A stretch of DNA of 28,744 nt from a virus (Duplodnaviria; Heunggongvirae; Uroviricota; Caudoviricetes), in IMG/VR virus record IMGVR_UViG_2923307698_000001, positions 1 to 28,744 of that record; one strand, given 5' to 3'. The notes below the pieces were generated by a model. It was not told the origin of the DNA and searched no databases. It worked only from the letters and a program-made list of their open reading frames with translations. This document shows positions 9,047 to 28,047 of this stretch, in pieces; position 1 is the first letter of the stretch, and each line of letters begins with the position of its first letter. A program made the position numbers and the translations under genes.

Positions 9047-9402
9047 TGGCCCGTATCGGGGGAACCTGTTATTTCAAAATTGACGGTCAGCAGCTATCGC
9101 TGACCGGCGGCATTGAGGTGCCCATGAACAGGACGGTCAATGATGACATCATCGGCCTGGACGGTTCAGTGGACCGCAAGGAAACTCACCGTGCGCCTTA
9201 TGTCAAAGGGACCTTCAAGGTGCCGAAGAATTTTCCGGTGAGCAAAATCACCTCGTCTGATGAGATGACCATCACTGCCGAGCTGGCGAACGGTCAGGTC
9301 TATGTATTGTCGTCCGCCTGGCTGCACGGCGAAGCGAACCATAATGCCGAAGAAGGCACGGTTGATCTTGAGTTCCACGGTGAAGAAGGGGATTACCAGT
9401 AA
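9046..9402 (+). CDS. Tail tube protein (Mu M-like)
   Basis: 118 aa immediately downstream of the sheath. Confidence 0.7.
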   Translation: MARIGGTCYFKIDGQQLSLTGGIEVPMNRTVNDDIIGLDGSVDRKETHRAPYVKGTFKVPKNFPVSKITSSDEMTITAELANGQVYVLSSAWLHGEANHNAEEGTVDLEFHGEEGDYQ

Positions 9403-9671
9403 TGAAAGAGCTTGAGTTAAAGAAACCGATTATCGCTCATGGTGAGACACTCTCCGTACTGGAGTTTGATGAACCCACCGGGAAGGATGTCCGCGAGCTG
9501 GGGTATCCCTACCAGATGAATCAGGATGAGTCCGTCAGACTTCTGGCGCATGTGGTGTCGAAATACATTGTGCGGCTGGCGAAAGTGCCGCAAAGCTCTG
9601 TCGACCAGATGTCTCCGGCAGACCTGAATGCAGCGGCGTGGCTTGTGGCTGGTTTTTTCCTCCAGGCCTGA
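9402..9671 (+). CDS. Tail assembly chaperone (G-like); a -1 frameshift gives an extended GT-like product reaching 9820
   Basis: 89-aa ORF between tube and tape measure. The zero frame contains T TTT TTC at 9653..9659; the -1 frame stays open to 9820 and overlaps the tape-measure start. Confidence 0.6.
   Translation: MKELELKKPIIAHGETLSVLEFDEPTGKDVRELGYPYQMNQDESVRLLAHVVSKYIVRLAKVPQSSVDQMSPADLNAAAWLVAGFFLQA
9653..9659 (+). other. Programmed -1 ribosomal frameshift slippery heptamer T TTT TTC
   Basis: Codons GGT TTT TTC in the chaperone frame. A -1 slip enters the frame of ORF 9638..9820 (FFPPGLTAEY...). Confidence 0.55.
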
Positions 9672-9812
9672 CGGCTGAATACCTCACTGATCGCTTCTTT
9701 GACTGCGCCAGCTACTGGCGCATTAATCCCTTCGAATTGCTGAATATGCCGATCAGTGAAATTCCCTTGCTGGTCAGTCAGGCAAACAGGATAGAGCAGG
9801 AGAAACGCACAC

Positions 9813-11645
9813 ATGGCTGAATTTGAGCTTAAGGCGTTGATCACCGGTGTCGACAGGCTTTCTCCCGCGCTGTCGAAAATGCAAAAGAAAATCCGGGGAT
9901 TTAAACGCCAGGCGGAAGAAGCGTCACAGGGTGGGCTGGCGCTTGGTGGCGGACTGGCAGCGGGGCTGACGCTTTCCCTGAAATCTTATGCCGATCAGGA
10001 AAACGCCGCTACCGGGCTGAAAGTCGCCATGATGGATGCGAACGGCGAGGTTGGAAAGAGCTTTCAGGACATCAATAAACTGGCTATTGGCCTGGGTAAC
10101 CAGCTACCCGGTACAACGGCTGATTTCCAGAACATGATGCAGATGCTGGTGCGTCAGGGGATCCCGGCAGAAAACATTCTGGGTGGTGTGGGTAAAGCGA
10201 CAGCTTATCTTGCGGTACAACTGAAAAAAACACCGGAAGCGGCTGCCGAGTTTGCCGCAAAGATGCAGGATGCTACCGGAACGGCCTCAGAAGACATGAT
10301 GGGGCTGTTCGACACAATTCAGAAGGCGTTTTATCTGGGCGTTGACGACACCAACATGCTGTCATTCTTCACTAAAACCAGCTCTGTTCTGAAGATGGTG
10401 AACAAGGACGGTCTTCAGGCTGCACAGAGCCTTGCCCCCATCAGCGTCATGATGGATCAGATGGGGATGAACGGGGAGTCGGCAGGTAACGCCCTGCGAA
10501 AAGTTATCCAGTCCGGATTAAGCGTTAAGAAAATCAGGGACGTCAATAAAATCATGGCCCGCCAGAAACTCGGGGTACAGCTCGATTTTACTGACGGCAA
10601 AGGGAGTTTTGGCGGTCTTGATAACATGTTCAGGCAACTGGCAAAGCTGCGAAAACTGACCGACGTTAAACGAACTGGTGTACTTAAGGCAATATTTGGT
10701 GATGATGCCGAAACCCTTCAGGTGGTCAATGCGCTGATCGATAAAGGAAAGGATGGCTACGATCAGATCCAGCAGAAGATGAATAAACAGGCCAGCCTGA
10801 ATAAACATGTTCAGGCACAGCTTGGTACGCTGTCCAACCTGTGGGAGGCAATGACGGGGACCGCAACTAACGGCCTTGCGGCTATTGGCGGCGCATTTTC
10901 TGGTGACGCCAAAAATATCACGCAATGGCTGGGGGAGTTAGGGGAAAAATTCACGAAGTTTGCGGATGAAAATCCCCGGGTTATTCGCGGCGTCGTCGGG
11001 CTTGCTGCCGGTCTTGCGATTCTGAAACTGGGATTGATGGGCGTGGGCAGTGCCATCAGTATCGTCAGCAGGATCATGTCGATGACGCCGATTGGCATGA
11101 TTGCGACGGCGATTGCCTTGGCTGCGGGATTAATTATCACTAACTGGGATGTTGTCGGACCTTATTTTAAGAAACTCTGGGAAACCATTAGTCCTTATTT
11201 TGAGGCTGGCTGGGAACTTCTGAAGAAGGTTTTTGCCTGGTCGCCGCTGGGGATGGTGATCAATAACTGGGGACCGGTTGTTAAGTGGTTTCAGGATATG
11301 TGGGATAAGCTGAAGCCGATTATTGAATGGTTTACCGACAGTTCCGGTGACACGGTCGATGCCATTAACTCGGCGCAGTGGGGCGCGGGTGCTTATGATG
11401 CTTATGGGACGGGAATACCGCCACGGGGATACACTCCTTATCCGGAGGTGGATCCGGCTCAGGCAAACAACGCCTCCGGTGCCACAGGCCCGAATCCTTT
11501 CATGATTAATAAAGCTACCGCGCCAAAAGTTGATGGTGAGATCAAGGTATCATTTATAAATATGCCATCAGGTATGCGGGTTACGGAAACACGCTCCAGT
11601 GGCATTGATATAAATCACGATGTTGGCTATACCCGATTTTGGTAG
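9813..11645 (+). CDS. Tail tape measure protein (Mu-like module)
   Basis: 610 aa, largely alpha-helical composition with a C-terminal hydrophobic stretch (VVGLAAGLAILKLGLMGVGSAISIV). Standard position after the chaperone. Confidence 0.8.
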   Translation: MAEFELKALITGVDRLSPALSKMQKKIRGFKRQAEEASQGGLALGGGLAAGLTLSLKSYADQENAATGLKVAMMDANGEVGKSFQDINKLAIGLGNQLPGTTADFQNMMQMLVRQGIPAENILGGVGKATAYLAVQLKKTPEAAAEFAAKMQDATGTASEDMMGLFDTIQKAFYLGVDDTNMLSFFTKTSSVLKMVNKDGLQAAQSLAPISVMMDQMGMNGESAGNALRKVIQSGLSVKKIRDVNKIMARQKLGVQLDFTDGKGSFGGLDNMFRQLAKLRKLTDVKRTGVLKAIFGDDAETLQVVNALIDKGKDGYDQIQQKMNKQASLNKHVQAQLGTLSNLWEAMTGTATNGLAAIGGAFSGDAKNITQWLGELGEKFTKFADENPRVIRGVVGLAAGLAILKLGLMGVGSAISIVSRIMSMTPIGMIATAIALAAGLIITNWDVVGPYFKKLWETISPYFEAGWELLKKVFAWSPLGMVINNWGPVVKWFQDMWDKLKPIIEWFTDSSGDTVDAINSAQWGAGAYDAYGTGIPPRGYTPYPEVDPAQANNASGATGPNPFMINKATAPKVDGEIKVSFINMPSGMRVTETRSSGIDINHDVGYTRFW

Positions 11646-11736
11646 CCAGGATTCCCCTCACAGGTATTGCTGGTTGTAAGTCATAAATAGAGTGATAGAA
11701 TTAATGCACATTTAGAAAAATGTTAATAGGCGAAAA
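11646..11736 (+). promoter_or_regulatory. Putative sigma70 promoter and operator-like palindrome for the moron
   Basis: -35-like TTGTAA (11674..11679), 16-bp spacer, extended -10 TGaTAGAAT (11693..11701). Perfect palindrome ACATTT-N4-AAATGT at 11707..11722, just before ATG 11737. Confidence 0.3.
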
Positions 11737-12268
11737 ATGAAAGGCTATATCACAGCAAGTGTAATTCTTGGAGCAGCGGCTATTTTTTTCATCTCTCATA
11801 ATCTCTGGCAACATCTCCTTTAAAGATGAACATATTATTCAGTTATCTGGAGGAGCCATAAAACTTGGTGATGTTTATAAAGAAAATAAATTGATAAGTG
11901 CAAAGATTATTTTTCCAGATAATCAGGGTGAACAGATTCTTGTTGTCGACGGCAATCCTGAAAACTTTAAGGAGGATTTTCAGGAGAAATTAAATAAAGT
12001 AATAAAAACTTTAAATGCGTCAAAGAAAAAAGATGAAGAGAAAGTTAGCCTGGATAATTTAAGTGTTATTGAAGAGTCTAAACTAGAGCTCGTTTCTGCG
12101 GTGCGTTACTCTGCTCAGTATGTTCCTATGTTTACTCTGACGCTGGACAAAAAAGAAATTACCATGCCTAAAAATACGGTAATATTTCCATTTGCCAGCG
12201 ATGAAACAGCTAAGTATTTAAATGAACAACAGCAAAAGTATAAAGATTCGTTGTTTCTGACTCGCTAA
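11737..12268 (+). CDS. AT-rich moron: hypothetical protein with hydrophobic N-terminus, frame split at a T7 tract
   Basis: ATG 11737 encodes MKGYITASVILGAAAIFF..., which stops after 28 codons. The +1 frame continues from the T7 run (11783..11789) as ...SSLIISGNISFKDEH... to 12268 (the ORF-track entry 11768..12268 uses a TTG start). AT-rich relative to flanking tail genes. Own terminator follows. Confidence 0.5.
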
Positions 12269-12287
12269 TTAATAAAATTCATTACAA

Positions 12288-12318
12288 GGCCACCTTCTAA
12301 TAGGTGGCTTTTTTATTT
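12288..12318 (+). terminator. Rho-independent terminator after the moron
   Basis: Stem gccacct / aggtggc with loop tctaat, followed by ttttttatttt. Confidence 0.6.
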
Positions 12319-12329
12319 TCGGAGTGTAT

Positions 12330-13658
12330 ATGACGTGGAAAGACAGGCTTCAGGATGCGTCATTTCGAGGTGTGCCGTTTAAGGTTGAAGAAGAAAGTGC
12401 GGGAACCGGTCGCCGTGTGGAAACACATGAATACCCGAACCGCGACAAACCCTATACCGAAGACCTGGGGAAAATCACTTTTCGCCCGTCCATCACGGCT
12501 TATGTGGTGGGAGATGACTGCTTTGACCAGCGCGATCGCCTGATTGACGCGCTGAATAAACCCGGTCCCGGCACGCTTGTCCATCCGACATACGGTGAGC
12601 TGAAAGTCTGTGTTGACGGGGAAGTTCGGGTCAGCACATCGAAAAGTGAAGGGCGTATTGTCCGCTTTGACCTGAAGTTTGTCGAAGCAGGAGAACTCTC
12701 TTACCCCACATCAGGTGCGGCGACGGCGCAGACGCTGATGTCATCCTGTTCTGCATTGGATAACTGCATCAGTGACAGCTTCAGCGGTTTCAGTATCGAT
12801 GGCGTGGCGGATTTTGTGCAGAACGACGTTATCGGTAATGCCAGCACAATGCTTGGGTATGTTTCTGATGCGATGAAAGTGGTGGATTCTGCCGTATCGG
12901 ATGCTGCCAGGCTGTTGCAGGGGGATATCTCGGTACTTCTGCCGCCACCATCGTCAGGCAAAAATTTCGTTGAGCAGGTGCAGAAAATGTGGCGTACCGG
13001 GAAACGCCTTTATGGTAACGCCAGCGACCTGGTCACCATGATCAAAACGCTTTCCGGTGTCAGCCTCGGCAGCGATCTGCAACCGCGCGGCGTCTGGAAA
13101 ACGGACAGTAAAACCACCGCCACGGCGACGCAGCAGCGTAACGTGGTTGCCAGCACCCTTCGTACGACCGCAATCAGCGAAGCGGCGTATGCCGTCACCC
13201 GATTGCCTGCGCCAACAACTTCCGCGGTGATGCAGAATGCCGCAGTGGGGCAGGCAACAACAGCTGCGCAGAGCACCGGCTGGCCTTCCGTCACGCATCC
13301 GGCACTGAACAATGCACCGGCGGTGAAAAACACGGTTGATCTGCCGACGTGGGAAGAACTGACTGACATTCGCGACACACTGAATACGGCAATTGATAAG
13401 GAGTTGTCCCGTACAACCAGTGATGCGCTGTTTCTGGCGCTGCGCCGGGTGAAAGCAGATCTGAATGCGGATATCAACACGCGCCTTGAACAGTCTGCAC
13501 GGATCATTCAGCGCACACCGGATGAGGTTTTACCCGCGCTGGTGCTGGCGGCGACCTGGTTTGATAACGCGGCGCGTGACGCGGACATTATCCGGCGTAA
13601 TGCCATTACGCATCCCGGCTTTGTGCCGGTGATCCCTCTGAAGGTGCCAGTGCAATGA
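12330..13658 (+). CDS. DNA circularisation protein (Mu N/gp43-like)
   Basis: N-terminus MTWKDRLQDASFRGVPFKVEEE fits the family N-terminal motif. ATG 12330 with RBS ggag 5 nt upstream; the ORF-track start at GTG 12324 is less likely. Confidence 0.7.
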   Translation: MTWKDRLQDASFRGVPFKVEEESAGTGRRVETHEYPNRDKPYTEDLGKITFRPSITAYVVGDDCFDQRDRLIDALNKPGPGTLVHPTYGELKVCVDGEVRVSTSKSEGRIVRFDLKFVEAGELSYPTSGAATAQTLMSSCSALDNCISDSFSGFSIDGVADFVQNDVIGNASTMLGYVSDAMKVVDSAVSDAARLLQGDISVLLPPPSSGKNFVEQVQKMWRTGKRLYGNASDLVTMIKTLSGVSLGSDLQPRGVWKTDSKTTATATQQRNVVASTLRTTAISEAAYAVTRLPAPTTSAVMQNAAVGQATTAAQSTGWPSVTHPALNNAPAVKNTVDLPTWEELTDIRDTLNTAIDKELSRTTSDALFLALRRVKADLNADINTRLEQSARIIQRTPDEVLPALVLAATWFDNAARDADIIRRNAITHPGFVPVIPLKVPVQ

Positions 13659-19218: not shown

Positions 19219-19785
19219 ATGCTTATTGGCTATGTACGCGTGTCAACAAATGACCAGAACACCGATTTGCAACGTAATGCACTGAACTGCGCGGGATGTG
19301 AGCGGATTTTTGAGGATAAAATCAGTGGCACTAAGTCCGACAGACCGGGGCTGAAAAAGCTGCTCAGGACACTATCGGCAGGAGACACGCTGGTTGTCTG
19401 GAAGCTGGACAGGTTGGGGCGCAGTATGCGGCATCTTGTTACGCTGATAGAGGAGTTGCGCCAGCGTGGTGTGAATTTCCGAAGCCTGACTGACAGTATT
19501 GATACCAGTACCCCAATGGGCCGTTTCTTTTTTCATGTCATGGGTGCCCTGGCTGAAATGGAACGCGAACTGATAGTTGAACGTACCAGGGCAGGGCTGG
19601 CTGCAGCTCGTGCCAAAGGCAGAGTAGGTGGACGCCGTCCTAAGTTGACCACCGAACAGTGGGCACAGATTGGGCGTTTACTCGAGGCCGGAGAATCAAG
19701 ACAGCGTATTGCACTGATTTTTGATGTGGGTGTTTCCACAATTTATAGAAAATTTCCGGCAAATAAGAGTAATGAATCCCCCTGA
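19219..19785 (+). CDS. pin: Serine recombinase DNA invertase (Pin/Gin/Hin family)
   Basis: MLIGYVRVSTNDQNTDLQRNAL...DTLVVWKLDRLGRSM...GRFFFHVMGALAEMERELIVERT...RRPKLT...STIYRKFPA carries the catalytic Ser and C-terminal HTH seen in Hin/Gin/Pin invertases. RBS aggggga precedes ATG 19219. Confidence 0.85.
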   Translation: MLIGYVRVSTNDQNTDLQRNALNCAGCERIFEDKISGTKSDRPGLKKLLRTLSAGDTLVVWKLDRLGRSMRHLVTLIEELRQRGVNFRSLTDSIDTSTPMGRFFFHVMGALAEMERELIVERTRAGLAAARAKGRVGGRRPKLTTEQWAQIGRLLEAGESRQRIALIFDVGVSTIYRKFPANKSNESP

Positions 19786-19927: not shown

Positions 19928-21100
19928 ATGGCTCAGGATTACCACCACGGGGTGCGCGTTGTTGAAGTCAACGAAGGCACCCGATCCATTACCACGGTGA
20001 GCACCGCCATCGTGGGCATGGTCTGCACGGGCGATGATGCCGATGCAAAAATGTTTCCTCTTAACAAACCTGTGCTGATCACTGATGTGCTGACTGCCAG
20101 CGGTAAAGCGGGTGAGTCCGGCACGCTGGCCCGTTCGCTGGATGCCATCGCTGACCAGGCAAAACCCGTGACCGTTGTTGTGCGTGTGCCGCAGGGTGAA
20201 ACGGAAGAAGAAACCACGACCAATATCATCGGCGCAGTGACTGCTGAAGGTAAAAAAACAGGCATGAAAGCTCTGTTATCTGCCCAGTCACAGCTCGGCG
20301 TTAAACCGCGCATTCTCGGCGTGCCAGGTCACGATAACAAAGCCGTTGCGACTGAGTTGCTGAGCGTGGCGCAAAGCCTGCGTGGGTTTGCTTACCTGTC
20401 AGCGTATGGCTGCAAGACGGTACAGGAGGCGATCACTTACCGTGAAAACTTCAGCCAGCGCGAAGGAATGCTGATCTGGCCCGACTTTACTGGCTGGGAC
20501 ACGGTGCTGAATGCCGAAGCAACGGCATATGCCACCGCCCGTGCACTTGGTCTGCGTGCCAAAATTGATGAGCAGACCGGGTGGCACAAAAGCCTGTCCA
20601 ACGTGGGCGTGAACGGTGTCACCGGAATTTCTGCAGATGTGTTCTGGGATCTGCAGGACCCGGCAACCGATGCAGGTCTGCTGAACCAGAACGACGTCAC
20701 CACGCTTGTGCGTAAAGACGGTTTCCGCTTCTGGGGTTCCCGCTGTCTGAGCGATGATCCGCTTTTTGCCTTCGAAAACTACACCCGCACGGCGCAGGTG
20801 CTGACGGACACAATGGCAGAAGCACACATGTGGGCGGTGGATAAACCGCTTAACCCGTCGCTGGCCCGCGACATTATCGAAGGTATCCGCGCCAAAATAC
20901 GCAGCCTGGTCAGTCAGGGCTATCTCATTGGTGGTGATTGCTGGCTGGATGAGTCGGTGAACGACAAAGACACGCTGAAAGCCGGAAAACTCACCATCGA
21001 CTATGACTACACGCCAGTGCCGCCACTTGAAAATCTGATGCTGCGCCAGCGCATCACCGATCAGTACCTGGTGAATTTCGCCAGCCAGGTCAGCGCGTAA
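19928..21100 (+). CDS. FI: P2-type tail sheath protein FI
   Basis: 390 aa. N-terminus [40 protein letters not shown] and C-terminus ...[27 protein letters not shown] match P2 FI as I recall it. Confidence 0.85.
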
Positions 21101-21109
21101 GGGGACAAC

Positions 21110-21625
21110 ATGGCTTTACCACGCAAATTAAAACATCTGAACCTGTTTAACGACGGGAACAACTGGCAGGGGATCGTTGAGTCGCTGACGCTGCCGAAAT
21201 TCACCCGCAAATATGAGAAGTATCGCGGCGGCGGAATGCCGGGTGCAGTGGATGTGGATCTGGGGCTTGATGACAGTGCGCTGGACACAGAATTTTCCAT
21301 TGGTGGTACTGAACTGCTGCTGTTTAAGCAGATGGGCAAAGCCACGGTAGATGGCATTCAGCTGCGCTTTACCGGCTCTATCCAGCGTGACGATACCGGG
21401 GAAGTGCAGGCCGTGGAGCTTGTGGTGCGTGGACGTCACAAAGAAGTGGATTCCGGCGAGTGGAAGACGGGCGAAAGCAACACCACCAAAGTGACCAGTA
21501 CCAACAGCTACGCGAAGCTGACCATCAATGGTGAGGTGCTCTATGAAGTGGACCTTATCAACATGGTGGAAATTGTGGACGGTGTGGACCTGATGGAAGC
21601 GCACCGCAACGCCCTCGGCCTCTGA
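21110..21625 (+). CDS. FII: P2-type tail tube protein FII
   Basis: 171 aa, MALPRKLKHLNLFNDGNNWQG..., directly after FI. Confidence 0.8.
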   Translation: MALPRKLKHLNLFNDGNNWQGIVESLTLPKFTRKYEKYRGGGMPGAVDVDLGLDDSALDTEFSIGGTELLLFKQMGKATVDGIQLRFTGSIQRDDTGEVQAVELVVRGRHKEVDSGEWKTGESNTTKVTSTNSYAKLTINGEVLYEVDLINMVEIVDGVDLMEAHRNALGL

Positions 21626-21636
21626 TGTATCTGAAC

Positions 21637-21654
21637 GGCGCGGGATACCGCGCC
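21637..21654 (+). other. GC stem-loop between FII and E
   Basis: ggcgcgg gata ccgcgcc is a perfect 7-bp stem with no T-tract. Likely an mRNA processing or attenuation element. Confidence 0.3.
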
Positions 21655-21679
21655 AGAACCCAATTTACAGGACAGCAAA

Positions 21680-21982
21680 ATGAGCGATAAGCAGACTGAA
21701 AAGACTATTCAACTGGATACCCCCATCAAGCGCGGTAAAACAGAAATCACCGAAATTGTGCTGCGTAAACCGCAGTCCGGTGCGCTGCGCGGTACACGCC
21801 TGCAGGCCATTATGGATATGGATGTGAACGCGATGATGACCGTGATCCCCCGTATCTCCAGTCCGGCACTGACTGCACAGGAAATTGCAGAGATGGACCC
21901 GGCAGATCTCACTGCCATGTCGGTTGAGGTTGTCACTTTTTTGTTGAAGAAGTCGGTGCTTGCCGGTTTACCGACAGCCTGA
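21680..21982 (+). CDS. E: P2-type tail assembly chaperone E
   Basis: 100 aa between tube and tape measure. Contains the slippery site T TTT TTG. Confidence 0.7.
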   Translation: MSDKQTEKTIQLDTPIKRGKTEITEIVLRKPQSGALRGTRLQAIMDMDVNAMMTVIPRISSPALTAQEIAEMDPADLTAMSVEVVTFLLKKSVLAGLPTA

Positions 21983-22116
21983 CGGTTGACGATCTGGTGG
22001 CTGATATCGCCACCATCTTTCACTGGCCGCCATCCGTTACTGACGTTATGCCGCTGACCGAAGTGCTGGAATGGCGGTATAAAGCGATTCAGAGAAGCGG
22101 GGCCAACGATGAGTGA
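21680..22116 (+). CDS. E+E' frameshift product (-1 shift at 21937..21943)
   Basis: Zero-frame codons ACT TTT TTG give the heptamer T TTT TTG at 21937..21943. The -1 frame reads VEEVGACRFTDSL...RYKAIQRSGANDE to TGA at 22114..22116, overlapping the T start at 22109. Confidence 0.6.
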
Positions 22117-25100
22117 TAACAACCTGCGGCTGCAGGTCATTCTTAATGCGGTTGACAAACTCACCCGCCCATTCCGTGTTGCACAGGCCAGTTCGAAAGA
22201 GCTGGCTGGCGCAATTCAGAATACCCGAAACAGCCTCAAAGAACTGAATAAGCAGGCTGGCAGAATTGATGAATTTCGCAAGACGCGCTCGCAACTAGCC
22301 ATAACAGCCAACAACCTGAACGCAGCCCGCGAAGAGGCGGCAAAACTCGCCACACAATTTGCTGCCACTAACAGGCCAACCGCCGCGCAGGCAAAGTTAT
22401 TCAGTCAGGCCAAAACACGAGTACAGGAACTTCAGCAGACCTATAACGGCTTGTTGGGGGCGGTCCAGAGACAACGTCAGGCACTTAAAGAATCAGGGAT
22501 TGATACCAGACAACTCAGTAGTGCCCAGCGAGAACTTAAGAAAAATGCTGAAGAAACAAGGCAGGCAATGGAGGGCCAGCAAAAAGCACTTAAACGTCTG
22601 GGTGAACAACAGGCACGGATGAACGCTGCCAGAGAACAATACTCAAGACGGCTTGAAGTGCGCGATCGCATCGCAGGAGCCGGAGCCACTACCACGGCTG
22701 CAGGGCTGGCAATGGGTGCGCCAGTGATGGCAGCAGTAAAAAGCTATACCAGCATGGAAGATGCCATGAAAGGTGTGGCAAAGCAGGTCAATGGTCTGCG
22801 TGATGATAATGGCAACCGCACTGCGCGTTTTTACGAAATGCAGGATGCCATCAAGGCTGCCAGCGAACAGTTGCCGATGGAAAACGGTGCTGTGGACTTT
22901 GCCGCACTGGTTGAAGGTGGTGCGCGCATGAACGTCGCAAATCCTGACGACAGCTGGGAAGACCAGAAACGTGACCTGCTGGCCTTCGCCAGCACGGCAG
23001 CAAAGGCGGCAACAGCCTTTGAGCTGCCAGCGGATGAACTGTCAGAAAGTCTGGGGAAAATCGCCCAGCTCTACAAAATCCCTACCCGCAATATTGAACA
23101 GCTCGGTGATGCGCTGAACTATCTGGATGATAACGCCATGTCGAAAGGGTCAGACATCATTGATGTCATGCAACGCCTGGGCGGTGTGGCAGATCGTCTG
23201 GATTATCGTAAAGCGGCGGCGCTGGGTTCCACCTTCCTGACACTGGGCGCTGCGCCGGAGGTTGCTGCCAGTGCAGCAAACGCGATGGTGCGTGAATTGT
23301 CCATTGCCACCATGCAAAGTAAGAGTTTCTTTGAAGGGATGAATCTGCTGAAACTCAATCCTGAAGTGATTGAAAAGCAGATGACGAAGGATGCGATGGG
23401 AACTATCCAGCGTGTGCTGGAGAAGGTGAACGCACTGCCGCAGGACAAGCGTCTGTCTGCCATGACCATGTTGTTTGGTAAAGAGTTTGGTGATGATGCA
23501 GCGAAACTGGCAAACAACCTTCCGGAACTGCAGCGCCAGCTAAAACTGACAGCGGGCAATGATGCGCTCGGTTCCATGCAGAAAGAATCCGACATCAACA
23601 AAGACTCACTTTCCGCTCAGTGGTTGCTGGTCAAAACCGGAGCGCAGAACACCTTCAGCAGCCTGGGCGAAACGCTGCGCCAGCCGCTGATGGATATTCT
23701 GTACACGGTAAAAAGCATCACGGGGGCGTTGCGCCGCTGGGTGGAAGCTAACCCGGAACTGACAGGCACACTGATGAAAGTAGCGGCTGTTGTGGCTGCG
23801 GTTACCGTAGGCCTCGGCACCTTAGCGGTGGCGCTGGCTGCAGTGCTGGGGCCGCTGGCAGTCATCCGTCTGGGATTCTCTGTGCTGGGTATCAAAACGT
23901 TACCTTCCGTTACGGCAGCAGTAACACGAACCAGCAGCGCGTTGTCCTGGTTAGCTGGCGCTCCACTGGCACTGCTGCGACGCGGGCTTGCTTCATCGGG
24001 CAACGCAGCGGGTTTACTTACTGCGCCGTTGTCGTCTTTGCGCCGCACCGCATCACTGACGGGGAATGTCCTGAAAACTGTAGCAGGTGTGCCGGTTGCA
24101 CTGTTGCGGTCTGGATTATCCGGTTTACGTGCGGTTGCTGTGATGTTTATGAATCCACTGGCAGCACTACGCGGTGGACTGGCTGCCGCAGGCGCGGTGC
24201 TGCGTGTGCTGGCATCCGGTCCGCTGGCGATGCTGCGCGTTGCCCTGTATGCCGTATCTGGTCTGTTAGGTGCTCTGCTCAGTCCGATAGGTCTTGTGGT
24301 TACTGCACTGGCGGGCGTGGCGCTGGTTGTCTGGAAATACTGGCAACCCATCACCGCATTTCTCGGTGGCGTGGTGGAAGGATTCAAAGCGGCGGCAGGT
24401 CCCATCAGTGCTGCATTCGAACCGCTTAAGCCCGTGTTCCAGTGGATTGGCGACAAAGTACAGGCGTTGTGGGGCTGGTTTACTGATCTGCTGACGCCTG
24501 TTAAGTCGACCTCTGCCGAACTGCAGAGCGCAGCGGCAATGGGGCGACGATTCGGGGAGGCACTGGCGGAAGGGCTGAATATGGTCATGCATCCGTTGGA
24601 CTCCCTGAAATCCGGCGTTTCCTGGTTGCTGGAGAAACTCGGTATTGTCAGTAAAGAGGCTGCAAAGGCGAAACTGCCGGAAAGCGTGACGCGTCAGCAA
24701 CCTGCGACGGTGAATGCAGACGGTAAAGTGATGATGCCATCGGGTGGTTTTCCGTCATGGGGATATGGCTTTGCGGGGATGTATGACAGCGGCGGCTATA
24801 TCCCGCGCGGGCAGTTCGGCATTGTCGGTGAAAACGGGCCTGAAATTGTCAACGGTCCGGCAAACGTGACCAGTCGGAGAAATACAGCTGCACTGGCTGC
24901 CGTTGTTGCCGGAATGATGGGCGTTGCTGCCGCGCCTGCAGAGCTTCCGCCGTTACATCCTTTGGCACTTCCCGCGAAAGGCGGCGAAGCGATGGTGAGT
25001 CGTGCAGCCACTGTGCCGCCCGCTCAACGGATTGAGGCACCGACGCAGATCATCATCCAGACGCAGCCAGGACAAAGTGCGCAGGATATTGCGCGGGAGG

Positions 25101-25186
25101 TGGCACGCCAGCTTGATGAACGTGAACGCAGGCTGAAGGCAAAAGCCAGGAGTAACTACAGCGATCAGGGGGGATACGACGCATGA
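22109..25186 (+). CDS. T: P2-type tail tape measure protein T
   Basis: 1025 aa. Long helical N-terminal half, Ala/Leu/Gly-rich hydrophobic repeats in the middle. Lies between E/E' and U. Confidence 0.8.
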   Translation: MSDNNLRLQVILNAVDKLTRPFRVAQASSKELAGAIQNTRNSLKELNKQAGRIDEFRKTRSQLAITANNLNAAREEAAKLATQFAATNRPTAAQAKLFSQAKTRVQELQQTYNGLLGAVQRQRQALKESGIDTRQLSSAQRELKKNAEETRQAMEGQQKALKRLGEQQARMNAAREQYSRRLEVRDRIAGAGATTTAAGLAMGAPVMAAVKSYTSMEDAMKGVAKQVNGLRDDNGNRTARFYEMQDAIKAASEQLPMENGAVDFAALVEGGARMNVANPDDSWEDQKRDLLAFASTAAKAATAFELPADELSESLGKIAQLYKIPTRNIEQLGDALNYLDDNAMSKGSDIIDVMQRLGGVADRLDYRKAAALGSTFLTLGAAPEVAASAANAMVRELSIATMQSKSFFEGMNLLKLNPEVIEKQMTKDAMGTIQRVLEKVNALPQDKRLSAMTMLFGKEFGDDAAKLANNLPELQRQLKLTAGNDALGSMQKESDINKDSLSAQWLLVKTGAQNTFSSLGETLRQPLMDILYTVKSITGALRRWVEANPELTGTLMKVAAVVAAVTVGLGTLAVALAAVLGPLAVIRLGFSVLGIKTLPSVTAAVTRTSSALSWLAGAPLALLRRGLASSGNAAGLLTAPLSSLRRTASLTGNVLKTVAGVPVALLRSGLSGLRAVAVMFMNPLAALRGGLAAAGAVLRVLASGPLAMLRVALYAVSGLLGALLSPIGLVVTALAGVALVVWKYWQPITAFLGGVVEGFKAAAGPISAAFEPLKPVFQWIGDKVQALWGWFTDLLTPVKSTSAELQSAAAMGRRFGEALAEGLNMVMHPLDSLKSGVSWLLEKLGIVSKEAAKAKLPESVTRQQPATVNADGKVMMPSGGFPSWGYGFAGMYDSGGYIPRGQFGIVGENGPEIVNGPANVTSRRNTAALAAVVAGMMGVAAAPAELPPLHPLALPAKGGEAMVSRAATVPPAQRIEAPTQIIIQTQPGQSAQDIAREVARQLDERERRLKAKARSNYSDQGGYDA

Positions 25187-25668
25187 TGATGGTGCTGGGA
25201 TTGTACGTGTTTATGCTGCGCACTGTGCCGTATCAGGAACTGCAGTATCAACGCAGCTGGCGACATGCGGCAAACAGCCGGGTCAACCGACGTCCGTCCA
25301 CGCAGTTTCTGGGACCGGACAACGACATGCTGACGCTTTCTGGTGTTCTTATGCCGGAGATAACAGGCGGCAGGCTGTCGTTGCTGGTACTGGAGCAGAT
25401 GGCAGAGCAGGGGAAAGCATGGCCCCTGATTGAAGGCAGCGGCACGATTTACGGCATGTATGTGATTGAGGGACTGAATCAGACTAAAACGGAGTTTTTC
25501 CGCGACGGTATGCCGCGCCGGATTGAGTTCACCCTGTCGCTCAAACGGGTGGATGAATCCCTGTCCGATATGTTCGGTGATCTCAGTGCGCAACTGAATA
25601 ATCTGCAGGACACGGCAACGTCTGCCTTAAGCGATATCAGTAAAACGGTGGGAGGGCTGCTGTCGTGA
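25183..25668 (+). CDS. U: P2-type tail protein U
   Basis: 161 aa, coupled start (ATGATGATG), between T and D. Confidence 0.7.
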   Translation: MMMVLGLYVFMLRTVPYQELQYQRSWRHAANSRVNRRPSTQFLGPDNDMLTLSGVLMPEITGGRLSLLVLEQMAEQGKAWPLIEGSGTIYGMYVIEGLNQTKTEFFRDGMPRRIEFTLSLKRVDESLSDMFGDLSAQLNNLQDTATSALSDISKTVGGLLS

Positions 25669-26765
25669 ATTTCAGCTCTGAACTGCTTAACAAAGGCAAC
25701 AAAACTCCCGCATTCAGCATCAGTATTGAGGGCAGGGATATCACCACTGTGCTGGATAACCGCCTGATGAGTTTGACGCTGACGGATAATCGGGGCTTTG
25801 AAGCAGACCAGCTTGATCTGGAGCTGGACGACGCCGACGGAAAAATCGTGCTGCCGCGCCGTGGTGCGGTTATTACGCTGGCGCTGGGCTGGAAGGGGCA
25901 GCCGCTTTTCCCGAAAGGGGCATTCACGGTGGACGAGATTGAACACACTGGCGCACCGGACCGCCTGACTATCCGGGCGCGAAGTGCTGATTTTCGTGAA
26001 ACGCTGAATACCCGCCGTGAAAAGTCGTGGCACAAGACCACCGTTGGGGAAGTGGTGAAGGAAATAGCTGCGCGGCACAAACTGAAGATGGCATTGGGTA
26101 AAGACCTGTCAGATAAACCCGTGGAACATATAGACCAGACCAATGAGAGTGACGGCAGTTTTCTGATGCGACTGGCGCGCCAGTACGGTGCTATTGCGTC
26201 GGTGAAAAATGGCAATCTGTTATTCATCCGGCAGGGACAGGGCAAAAGCGCCAGCGGTAAACCACTGCCGGTGATCACTATCACGCGTAAGGACGGCGAC
26301 AGTCACCGCTTTACCCTGGCAGATCGCGGAGCCTATACGGGCGTCATTGCCAGCTGGTTGCATACCCGCGAACCCGCGAAGAAAGAAAGCACCACGGTGA
26401 AGCGTAAGCGCAGAACTAAGAAGCAGAAGAAAGAGCCGGAAGCGAAGCAGGGCGATTACCTGGTGGGGACGGATGAAAACGTGCTGGTACTTAATCGCAC
26501 TTATGCCAACCGGAGCAACGCCGAACGAGCGGCGAAAATGCAGTGGGAACGCCTGCAACGCGGTGTTGCGTCATTCTCGCTACAACTGGCGGAAGGTCGG
26601 GCAGATCTCTACACGGAAATGCCTGTGAAGGTCAGTGGCTTTAAACAGCCAATAGATGATGCGGAATGGACCATTACGACTCTGACACATACCGTCAGCC
26701 CGGATAACGGTTTTACGACCAGTATTGAACTTGAAGTGAAAATTGGTGATCTTGAAATGGAGTAA
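25665..26765 (+). CDS. D: P2-type tail protein D (late control D family)
   Basis: 366 aa. GTG start overlaps the U stop (GTGA), RBS ggtgggaggg. Lys-rich internal segment. Last gene before ogr. Confidence 0.75.
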   Translation: MNFSSELLNKGNKTPAFSISIEGRDITTVLDNRLMSLTLTDNRGFEADQLDLELDDADGKIVLPRRGAVITLALGWKGQPLFPKGAFTVDEIEHTGAPDRLTIRARSADFRETLNTRREKSWHKTTVGEVVKEIAARHKLKMALGKDLSDKPVEHIDQTNESDGSFLMRLARQYGAIASVKNGNLLFIRQGQGKSASGKPLPVITITRKDGDSHRFTLADRGAYTGVIASWLHTREPAKKESTTVKRKRRTKKQKKEPEAKQGDYLVGTDENVLVLNRTYANRSNAERAAKMQWERLQRGVASFSLQLAEGRADLYTEMPVKVSGFKQPIDDAEWTITTLTHTVSPDNGFTTSIELEVKIGDLEME

Positions 26766-26833
26766 ATGGTTCTCAATATTGATATTTTGTGTATCATTGC
26801 AATGATTCTGATAGCAAAGGTAGGGATCTGGAT

Positions 26834-27052
26834 ATGATGAATTGTCCAAAGTGTGGTCATGCGGCGCACACAAGGAGCAGTTTTCAAGTAACAGAAAGCA
26901 CCAAAGAGCGTTACTGCCAGTGCCAAAATATTAACTGCGGGAGCACTTTTGTTACCCATGAAACAGTGGTCCGGTTTATTGTGACACCTGCAGTGATTGC
27001 CACAGCCCCTCCACATCCATTGCCAGGTGGTCAGGGCCATATGAATTTTTAA
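26834..27052 (+). CDS. ogr: Ogr/Delta-family zinc-finger late transcription activator
   Basis: MMNCPKCGHAAHTRSS...KERYCQCQNINCGSTF...: C-X2-C-X22-C-X4-C spacing and ~72 aa length match P2 Ogr. Position at the prophage right end next to att, as in P2. Confidence 0.8.
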   Translation: MMNCPKCGHAAHTRSSFQVTESTKERYCQCQNINCGSTFVTHETVVRFIVTPAVIATAPPHPLPGGQGHMNF

Positions 27053-27680: not shown

Positions 27681-27707
27681 TATTTGGTGGAGCTGGCGGG
27701 AGTTGAA
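27655..27707. repeat. Proximal att-site direct repeat (ssrA 3' end plus terminator), partner of 1..52
   Basis: Identical to window 1..32 over 27655..27686, with a degenerate match beyond. Confidence 0.7.
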
Positions 27708-28047
27708 CCCGCGTCCGAAATTCCTACATCCTCGGTACTACATGCTTAGTCAGTCTTTACATTCGCTTGCCAGCTGCGGACGGACACGCCACTAACAAAC
27801 TAGCCTGATTAAGTTTTAACGCTTCAACCCCAGGCAGGGCTTCCACGCGATCTCTTTTGGGTTTGACCTCTCTTGATCCCCGTCCTAAGAGCGGAGGCTA
27901 GGGAGAGAGGGCTCTAAGCAGGTTATTAAGCTGCTAAAGCGTAGTTTTCGTCGTTTGCGACTATTTTTTGCGGCTTTTTACGAGGCCAACCGCCCCTCGG
28001 CATGCACCTTGGGTTTCGCAAATCCCGTCGAATCCAGAATCAGCCCC
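27685..28047 (-). ncRNA. ssrA: tmRNA (transfer-messenger RNA, SsrA)
   Basis: Reverse complement reads GGGGCTGATTCTGGATTCGACGGG...CCCGCCAGCTCCACCA, 363 nt. Tag reading frame GCA AAC GAC GAA AAC TAC GCT TTA GCA GCT TAA (ANDENYALAA) at 27926..27958. Matches the enterobacterial tmRNA as I recall it. Confidence 0.97.

Follow-up and report, generated by a model that had tools for sequence, protein, structure and literature searches.

The AT-rich segment at positions 11646-12318 of the window (the whole stretch of DNA analysed here, 28,744 nucleotides long) raises two questions, namely, whether this segment is an accessory cassette (moron) inserted into a phage tail operon, and why its potential gene is split by a run of seven T residues. 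The window corresponds to Escherichia coli FORC_042 (NZ_CP025318.1), starting from position 1209608, with an exact match over the stretches compared. It appears very likely that a true moron occupies a slot in which cargo is readily exchanged and that the copy of its gene in the window is a pseudogene. The features are listed in Table 1.

Table 1. Features of the segment and of the flanking genes (window coordinates)
Feature	Position	Strand	Basis and remarks
Tail tape-measure gene	9813..11645	+	PGAP; PhageMin_Tail Pfam matches on homologues; stop codon is the left edge of the slot
91-nt upstream spacer of the cassette	11646..11736	+	Sigma-70-like site and weak Shine-Dalgarno sequence (AGGCGA) ahead of the ATG
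Sigma-70-like site TTGTAA-16-TGaTAGAAT	11674-11701	+	9/12 matches plus TG (extended -10-like)
Perfect 6-bp inverted repeat ACATTT-N4-AAATGT	11709..11724
Probable frameshifted pseudogene of a predicted 176-aa bitopic membrane protein	11737..12268	+	PHROG 5485; intact allele WP_000679479.1
5' fragment, 28-codon ORF from the ATG	11737..11823	+	Most of the predicted transmembrane helix, then out of frame
3' fragment, +1 frame	11768..12268	+	PGAP 166-aa TTG-start protein WP_243037782.1
T7 run	11783..11789	+	Likely ancestral T6 is ATT TTT TCA (Ile16-Phe17-Ser18); extra T is the probable inactivating lesion
Intrinsic-terminator-like hairpin (10-bp stem, 6-nt loop) plus TTTTTTATTTT	12286..12321	+	Abuts the ribosome-binding site that serves the following gene
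DNA-circularisation (Mu gpN-like baseplate hub) gene	12330..13658	+	PGAP; DNA_circ_N Pfam matches on homologues; right edge of the slot

The split reading frame and the T tract

The organization of the reading frames is as described in the earlier note: the ORF that starts with the ATG terminates after 28 codons, and the +1 frame remains open beyond the T run. Deletion of a single T yields an ORF of 531 nt that encodes 176 aa (about 175 had been anticipated), with an N-terminal hydrophobic anchor, and is identical to WP_000679479.1 as annotated in strain EC1515. The 741-nt segment is found in 183 E. coli records, with at least 99% identity in all but one. When the tract was compared in 177 E. 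coli records, an 80-nt probe carrying T7 perfectly matched only FORC_042 and JNE132847; the other 175 records fall into the one-difference band and, among the matches listed, all span 79 nt. The corresponding 79-mer with T6 is identical in 141 of the 177 records, with the rest in the 95-99% band; the twelve non-identical matches sampled all retain the 79-nt span and so reflect substitutions. Thus, the count of T residues in related genomes, which the earlier note had proposed as a check, is compatible with T6 in all but the two T7 records, and no T5 or T8 variants were detected among the E. coli matches sampled. The PGAP calls follow the same division, with the 176-aa protein in T6 strains and the 166-aa TTG-start protein in both T7 strains. 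T6 is present at the same codons in the homologues from Leclercia, Citrobacter and Edwardsiella, the tract being conserved because the conserved Ile/Val-Phe-Ser residues are read with AT-rich codons. Judging from this distribution, T6 is the ancestral state of the tract.

Of the three explanations of the split frame offered in the earlier note, a recent inactivating mutation is the one that agrees with the data, given that T6 prevails in nearly all of the remaining copies from E. coli as well as in the homologues from other genera. The nearest relative of the FORC_042 prophage is that of JNE132847, with 99.7% identity over 17.6 kb, compared with at most 98.3% for the next one, and the two share a chromosomal junction in which a truncated ypjA gene is followed by IS3 and the prophage; T7 therefore appears to be a real mutation inherited by descent. 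The alternative that the gene is a phase-variable contingency locus, in which frequent slipped-strand mispairing at the T tract would have evolved as a means to turn expression ON (T6) and OFF (T7), draws on the location of the homopolymer inside an ORF, on the retention of T6 at the same codons in other genera and on the existence of one OFF allele. However, that allele occurs in only two of the 177 records; these two, with their common IS3 junction, represent a single lineage, so that there is no common ON/OFF length polymorphism, and T5 and T8 are missing from the matches sampled. The tract, be it T6 or T7, is also below the length of classical phase-variable homopolymers, which are usually eight or more nucleotides long, and its conservation is accounted for by the encoded residues and the codons used. 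Phase variation is, accordingly, extremely improbable.

An artefact, with T6 as the true tract and an intact gene in FORC_042, could be envisaged given that homopolymer length errors are common in long-read assemblies, and the circular phage contig of strain CX04 is indeed full of such frameshifts. This explanation is nevertheless very unlikely because T7 is present in two independent assemblies (from Korea and Japan) that are mutual closest relatives among the 177 carriers and share the ypjA-IS3 junction. Furthermore, in the stretch of FORC_042 that was examined, frameshifts are flagged only in the ypjCB pseudogene and in the IS3-truncated portal remnant, and all other phage genes are annotated as intact.

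It also has to be considered whether the T7 allele retains function, either as a soluble protein translated from the TTG or through +1 slippage on U UUU UUU C that would restore the full-length product. The +1 frame is open and intact over the whole predicted periplasmic domain, and, judging from the sequence, Ile-Phe-Ser would be regenerated exactly if tRNA-Phe moved by +1 from one UUU codon onto the UUU that overlaps it. However, the TTG at 11768 is not preceded by an evident ribosome-binding site, the product would lack the anchor that is present in 68 of the 70 family members, and no stimulatory element is apparent. Because the next zero-frame codon, UUC, uses the same abundant tRNA, slippage should stay at the background level. 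Retained function thus seems highly improbable, and the 166-aa TTG-start ORF was rejected as a real gene given the conservation of the N-terminal anchor across the family.

The most plausible scenario is that the extra T terminates the anchor ORF after 28 codons and leaves the periplasmic domain, which the 3' fragment encodes in its entirety but without the membrane anchor, devoid of an export signal. T7 would then be a null or near-null allele that was fixed by descent in a prophage remnant already truncated by IS3. As far as can be judged from comparative evidence, T7 represents ordinary gene decay and neither phase variation nor an assembly error.

Other disrupted alleles of this gene are found in E. 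coli in the public protein sets (P0002, P0003, P0004, P0013 and P0022) but are rare compared with the intact cluster of 524 members. Among them are alleles that have lost 10 or 36 aa in frame, one that is frameshifted at the A6 run, a fusion with the portal gene and a replacement of the N-terminal part with the break immediately after the T tract.

The prophage and the variable slot in its tail operon

By gene content and order, the phage is a temperate myovirus of the SfI/SfV type that combines an HK97-type head with a Mu-like contractile tail. The HK97-type portal, protease and capsid genes are followed by the Mu-type tail genes (PGAP, Pfam), including those for the sheath, tube, tape measure, gpN, gpP, gp45, gp46, gp47 and gp48. 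The designation of the operon as Mu-like in the earlier note holds for the tail but not for the rest of the phage, which is of the SfI/SfV type and, besides the HK97-type head, has a terminase of the P27 type and a late antiterminator. In FORC_042, an IS3 element cuts the portal gene, and the terminase, lysis, antiterminator and early genes to the left of it are gone; in JNE132847, those late genes are retained, and the early region is broken by IS3 and IS30. The frameshift thus resides in a decaying element, given that both T7 prophages carry IS insertions.

Several other features of this region deserve mention. At about 787-2404, a truncated ypjA/ehaD autotransporter gene abuts the IS3-family element that truncates the portal gene; JNE132847 has the same junction with approximately 13 kb more of the prophage. 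Downstream, at 19928-27052, there is a second, P2-like tail remnant (sheath, tube, E/E', a 1025-aa tape measure, U, D and ogr) that adjoins ssrA (27685-28047) and smpB, so that remnants of two prophages are combined in this region. Between 18440 and 19785, a gene for a Pin-type serine recombinase (19219-19785) lies next to oppositely oriented fragments of tail-fibre and tail-fibre-assembly genes, an arrangement that resembles an invertible host-range segment. The tail-assembly-chaperone gene ends just past a T TTT TTC heptamer (9653-9659; ORFs 9402-9671 and 9638-9820), from which a -1-frame ORF extends to the start of the tape-measure gene. This looks like a canonical programmed -1 frameshift of the G/GT type and would be a likely functional T-run frameshift site in the same operon. 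Finally, strain CX04 contains the moron-bearing phage both in the chromosome and as a 37.7-kb circle, 'plasmid unnamed3' (NZ_CP081716.1, locus L025), in which a dusA fragment lies beside the integrase gene and the assembly is rich in frameshifts.

The assertion that the segment is a moron-type insert in the tail operon is supported by comparison with relatives of the phage. In phages SfI and YeP3, the slot is empty, with the tape-measure and circularisation genes directly adjacent and only 45-60 nt apart. The circularisation protein of SfI is 98% identical to that encoded in the window, and the one from YeP3 is 58% identical; for SfI and SKA5 taken together, the identity to the protein encoded in the window is 98-99%. 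A probe consisting only of the flanks retrieved 1,101 records from E. coli, and the flanks are thus present in about 1,100 of the 5,426 complete genomes; 46 loci with both flanks were sampled evenly. The slot is empty in about 29 of these 46 (663-nt span, 63-nt spacer) and carries the cassette found in the window in 10 (1,283-nt span). The remaining states include unrelated cargo, namely, a protein of 164-170 aa with a cleavable signal peptide and GC 0.31, as in SKA5 and M8 (3/46 loci), a protein with an OB fold and an N-terminal transmembrane helix encoded on the opposite strand (3/46) and a 125-aa protein with a bPH domain (1/46). Cargo genes were mapped at 2398-2910 in L019, 632-1018 in L022, 633-1079 in L023, 656-1033 in L024 and 1000-1494 in L027. 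The assumption that all slots of about 1,284 nt contain the cassette present in the window was rejected because, as the example of strain M8 showed, the slots with 91-92% flank identity have the SKA5-type cargo; the occurrence of this cassette in backbones diverged by more than 8% was dropped for the same reason.

On the left, the boundary of the slot is the stop codon of the tape-measure gene, with the relatives diverging at the last 2-3 codons; on the right, it falls inside a hairpin stem, and the T-run and ribosome-binding site beyond belong to the shared backbone. All cargos are AT-rich, and the greater AT content claimed for the segment in the earlier note is readily apparent: GC is 0.33-0.37 across 11550-12300, and likewise in the segment as such, compared with 0.48-0.63 in the flanks. 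For the T6-repaired gene, GC is 0.343, compared with 0.516 for the tape-measure gene and 0.559 for the circularisation gene, and the low GC is preserved in all homologue loci examined (0.34-0.39 vs 0.49-0.57 in the flanks). The segment thus shows two of the hallmarks of a moron, namely, extra DNA between genes that are adjacent in close relatives and composition unlike that of the neighbours. No match to the cassette was detected in 50,697 deposited phage genomes by a distant-mode DNA search and tblastn, and it has so far been found only in prophages and metagenomes.

The encoded protein and the flanking control elements

Along its full length (176/176 positions, E = 3.8e-108), the T6-repaired protein matches PHROG 5485; the repaired gene is identical to WP_000679479.1, from which the copy in the window differs by the frameshifting extra T. 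In agreement with the statement that the product belongs to no recognised family, there is no match to it in Pfam, NCBIfam or PADLOC; Pfam searches with 70 family members yielded only scattered single-member noise, and a PDB profile search returned a single chance match (E = 0.87). The closest homologues, with 52-58% identity and 173-174 aa, come from Leclercia and Lelliottia, where they occupy the same slot. A profile search of 1.84 billion representative proteins identified 80 relatives, nearly all of about 175 aa; PHROG 5485 and its relatives form roughly 80 clusters at 50% identity. The homologues with 30-58% identity retain the full length (173-176 aa), and the gene appears to be subject to purifying selection because synonymous sites are saturated (approximately 0.75), while the non-synonymous difference is only 0.26-0.50 per site.

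A 19-residue hydrophobic stretch (Kyte-Doolittle score of at least 1.6) is present at the N-terminus of 68 of the 70 family members, with a net charge of about +1 on its N-terminal side and of about -0.7 on its C-terminal side. With regard to the choice between an anchor and a signal sequence, which the earlier note had left to topology prediction, a transmembrane helix is predicted; a lipobox-like motif is found in only two of the 70 members, and the mature part is almost free of cysteines. The AlphaFold model built from the 70-sequence alignment (pLDDT 90.7) consists of a helix at residues 2-23 that is joined by a short linker to four strands and a helix, followed by two more strands and another helix. 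The intact gene is thus predicted to encode an inner-membrane protein with a cytoplasmic N-terminus, the anchoring helix 2-23 and a periplasmic alpha/beta domain of about 145 aa. The conserved positions (G39, L43, G44, E49, N93, Y124 and L134) give no indication of catalysis. The best structural neighbour among predicted viral structures, detected by Foldseek with the first, lower-confidence model as the query, is BFVD A0A2H4P829, a 'lipoprotein' of Pseudomonas phage ventosus (E = 8e-6, TM-score of about 0.5, 15% identity), likewise a small phage protein targeted to the envelope.

The family is repeatedly found near tail genes. A homologue with 30% identity (locus L013) occupies the same slot, between the tape-measure and DNA_circ_N genes, with an upstream gap of 34 nt, and a member with 29% identity is located inside an unrelated baseplate operon of the Pam3/E217 type (L015, L016). 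In locus L017, the homologue is convergent to the TMP_3 tape-measure gene, so that it must form its own transcription unit. Distant members also occur without recognisable tail genes nearby, as in L014 and in the case of P0064, which is beside a thioredoxin gene. A profile derived from the alignment of close homologues produced matches in only two genomes.

The control elements attributed to the segment are all present, but to different extents distinguishable from chance. The sigma-70-like site exists, but a promoter scan of the region found 5 sites compared with 4.4 expected in shuffles, which is the chance level, and the upstream regions of the homologues show no clearly conserved -35/-10 elements. 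The palindrome said to mark the transcript start is perfect but no better than expected by chance, with such an inverted repeat appearing in 18% of the dinucleotide shuffles of the 91-nt spacer, and was therefore rejected as a significant operator; the upstream regions of the homologues contain other, unrelated inverted repeats. The hairpin at 12286-12311 followed by TTTTTTATTTT is a far stronger element (-15.6 kcal/mol, z = -4.1; 0/200 shuffles fold as well). It is, however, found at the same position in all relatives, including those with empty slots, although the stem sequence differs between cassettes. The terminator is thus not exclusively the cassette's own and may serve the late operon instead, as a conserved internal terminator or attenuator of the tail genes. 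Similar GC-rich hairpins with a T-run, just 5' of the ribosome-binding site of the circularisation gene, lie at 2960-2990 in L020 and about 2965-2990 in L021.

Possible function of the intact gene

In the lysogenic state, transcription of the gene in an intact prophage could start at a weak sigma-70 promoter of the cassette and stop at the hairpin, and during lytic growth a late antiterminator would let transcription pass; the presence of a gene for a late antitermination protein in the moron-bearing phages fits such read-through. The protein would act in the envelope, most likely by hindering the tail of an infecting phage on its way through the periplasm and the inner membrane, and the outcome might be superinfection exclusion at the DNA-injection step. 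The assignment of the moron product specifically as a superinfection-exclusion protein is tentative, with the chances somewhat below even, and is made by analogy. It is suggested by the observations that three of the four slot cargos are exported or membrane-anchored, that tape-measure and hub genes are recurrent neighbours of the family, that the direction of transcription is opposite to that of the late operon in one alternative cargo and in one homologue, and by the precedent of HK97 gp15.

The gp15 moron of phage HK97 (Juhala et al. 2000; Cumby et al. 2012) lies in the tail operon by the tape-measure gene, and its inner-membrane product blocks genome injection (reviewed in PMC3594210). Similarly to the cassette described here, it is a small gene with composition unlike that of its neighbours, promoter-like and terminator-like elements and an inner-membrane product with a single N-terminal helix (predicted in the present case), and is absent from close relatives. 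However, gp15 belongs to the YebO family and shows no sequence similarity to the protein encoded in the window, which is without a match in Pfam and PADLOC and, unlike gp15, is predicted to contain a folded periplasmic domain. HK97 is a siphovirus whereas the phage considered here is a myovirus with a Mu-like tail; the exclusion phenotype is that known for gp15.

A second comparison involves two injection blockers from prophages of Gram-positive bacteria, the lactococcal Sie2009 and the Ltp protein of Streptococcus thermophilus, which, as predicted for the moron product, are prophage proteins of about 150-170 aa tethered to the cytoplasmic membrane on its outer side. The target of Ltp is the tape-measure protein. 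Ltp is described as a surface-exposed lipoprotein involved in superinfection exclusion (PMC3952083). The anchor thus differs from that of the PHROG 5485 family, with its near lack of lipobox-like motifs, and the genes for Sie2009 and Ltp are located in the lysogeny module, in contrast to the tail operon here. No fold shared with blockers of the Sie2009/Ltp type was detected. More generally, no sequence or fold homology was found to known superinfection-exclusion and defence proteins (PADLOC families, YebO/gp15, Imm, Sp, SieA, Cor and Ltp).

The predicted topology is equally compatible with a host-fitness or virulence factor and with a role in lytic growth. Under the first of these alternatives, the protein would serve lysogenic conversion or the fitness of the host, through adhesion or resistance to serum or stress, rather than act against phages; lambda Lom and Bor provide the comparison. 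This would be in line with the location in the envelope, the encoding by a moron of a temperate enterobacterial phage, the lack of a PADLOC defence-family match and the diverse origins of the carriers, which come from many hosts and include ETEC H10407. This possibility nonetheless appears unlikely because the predicted anchor places the protein in the inner membrane, facing the periplasm rather than the cell surface, and because the family recurs in or beside the tail and baseplate modules of two unrelated myovirus types, which hints at a link to tail function. Under the second alternative, the protein could, for example, be a periplasmic helper of tail penetration or release, or keep the progeny from adsorbing to debris, and would be expressed late by read-through of the operon, not from the prophage. 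The orientation of the gene, which is that of the late operon in four lineages, the short upstream gap in L013 and the weak promoter evidence can be considered compatible with such a role. However, the gene is dispensable, being missing from the complete deposited genomes of SfI, YeP3 and SKA5, and the slot is empty in most of the E. coli relatives; in addition, the convergent homologue in L017 and the opposite strand of the OB-fold cargo are difficult to reconcile with late expression. A late lytic function is hence quite improbable, and interference with incoming phages remains the preferred, if tentative, reading.

It is a more speculative and, at present, doubtful proposition that PHROG 5485 and its relatives comprise a new class of periplasm-facing superinfection-exclusion proteins that are linked to the tape-measure and hub genes of contractile-tailed temperate phages and target incoming tails at the inner membrane, with the slot being an unrecognised hotspot of envelope defence. 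If this is the case, the tape-measure/gpN junction would be a hotspot with at least four alternative cassettes, three of these encoding exported or membrane-anchored proteins.

The literature searches on the accession and on the slot returned nothing specific. As far as these searches show, the function of the PHROG 5485 family and the multi-state tape-measure/gpN slot of SfI-type prophages are apparently undescribed, although elements of this kind are well known, and the frameshift represents ordinary decay. The copy of the gene in the window appears to be a dead accessory gene in a dying prophage, mis-annotated by PGAP as a 166-aa TTG-start protein. The slot itself, a single short junction, belongs to a type of prophage that is very common in E. 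coli and exists in at least five states, and the family combines a confidently predicted fold that has no solved relative with recurrence next to tape-measure and baseplate genes in unrelated myoviruses. Together, the slot and the family present a concrete, cheap target for the discovery of new prophage-encoded exclusion or envelope-modifying functions.
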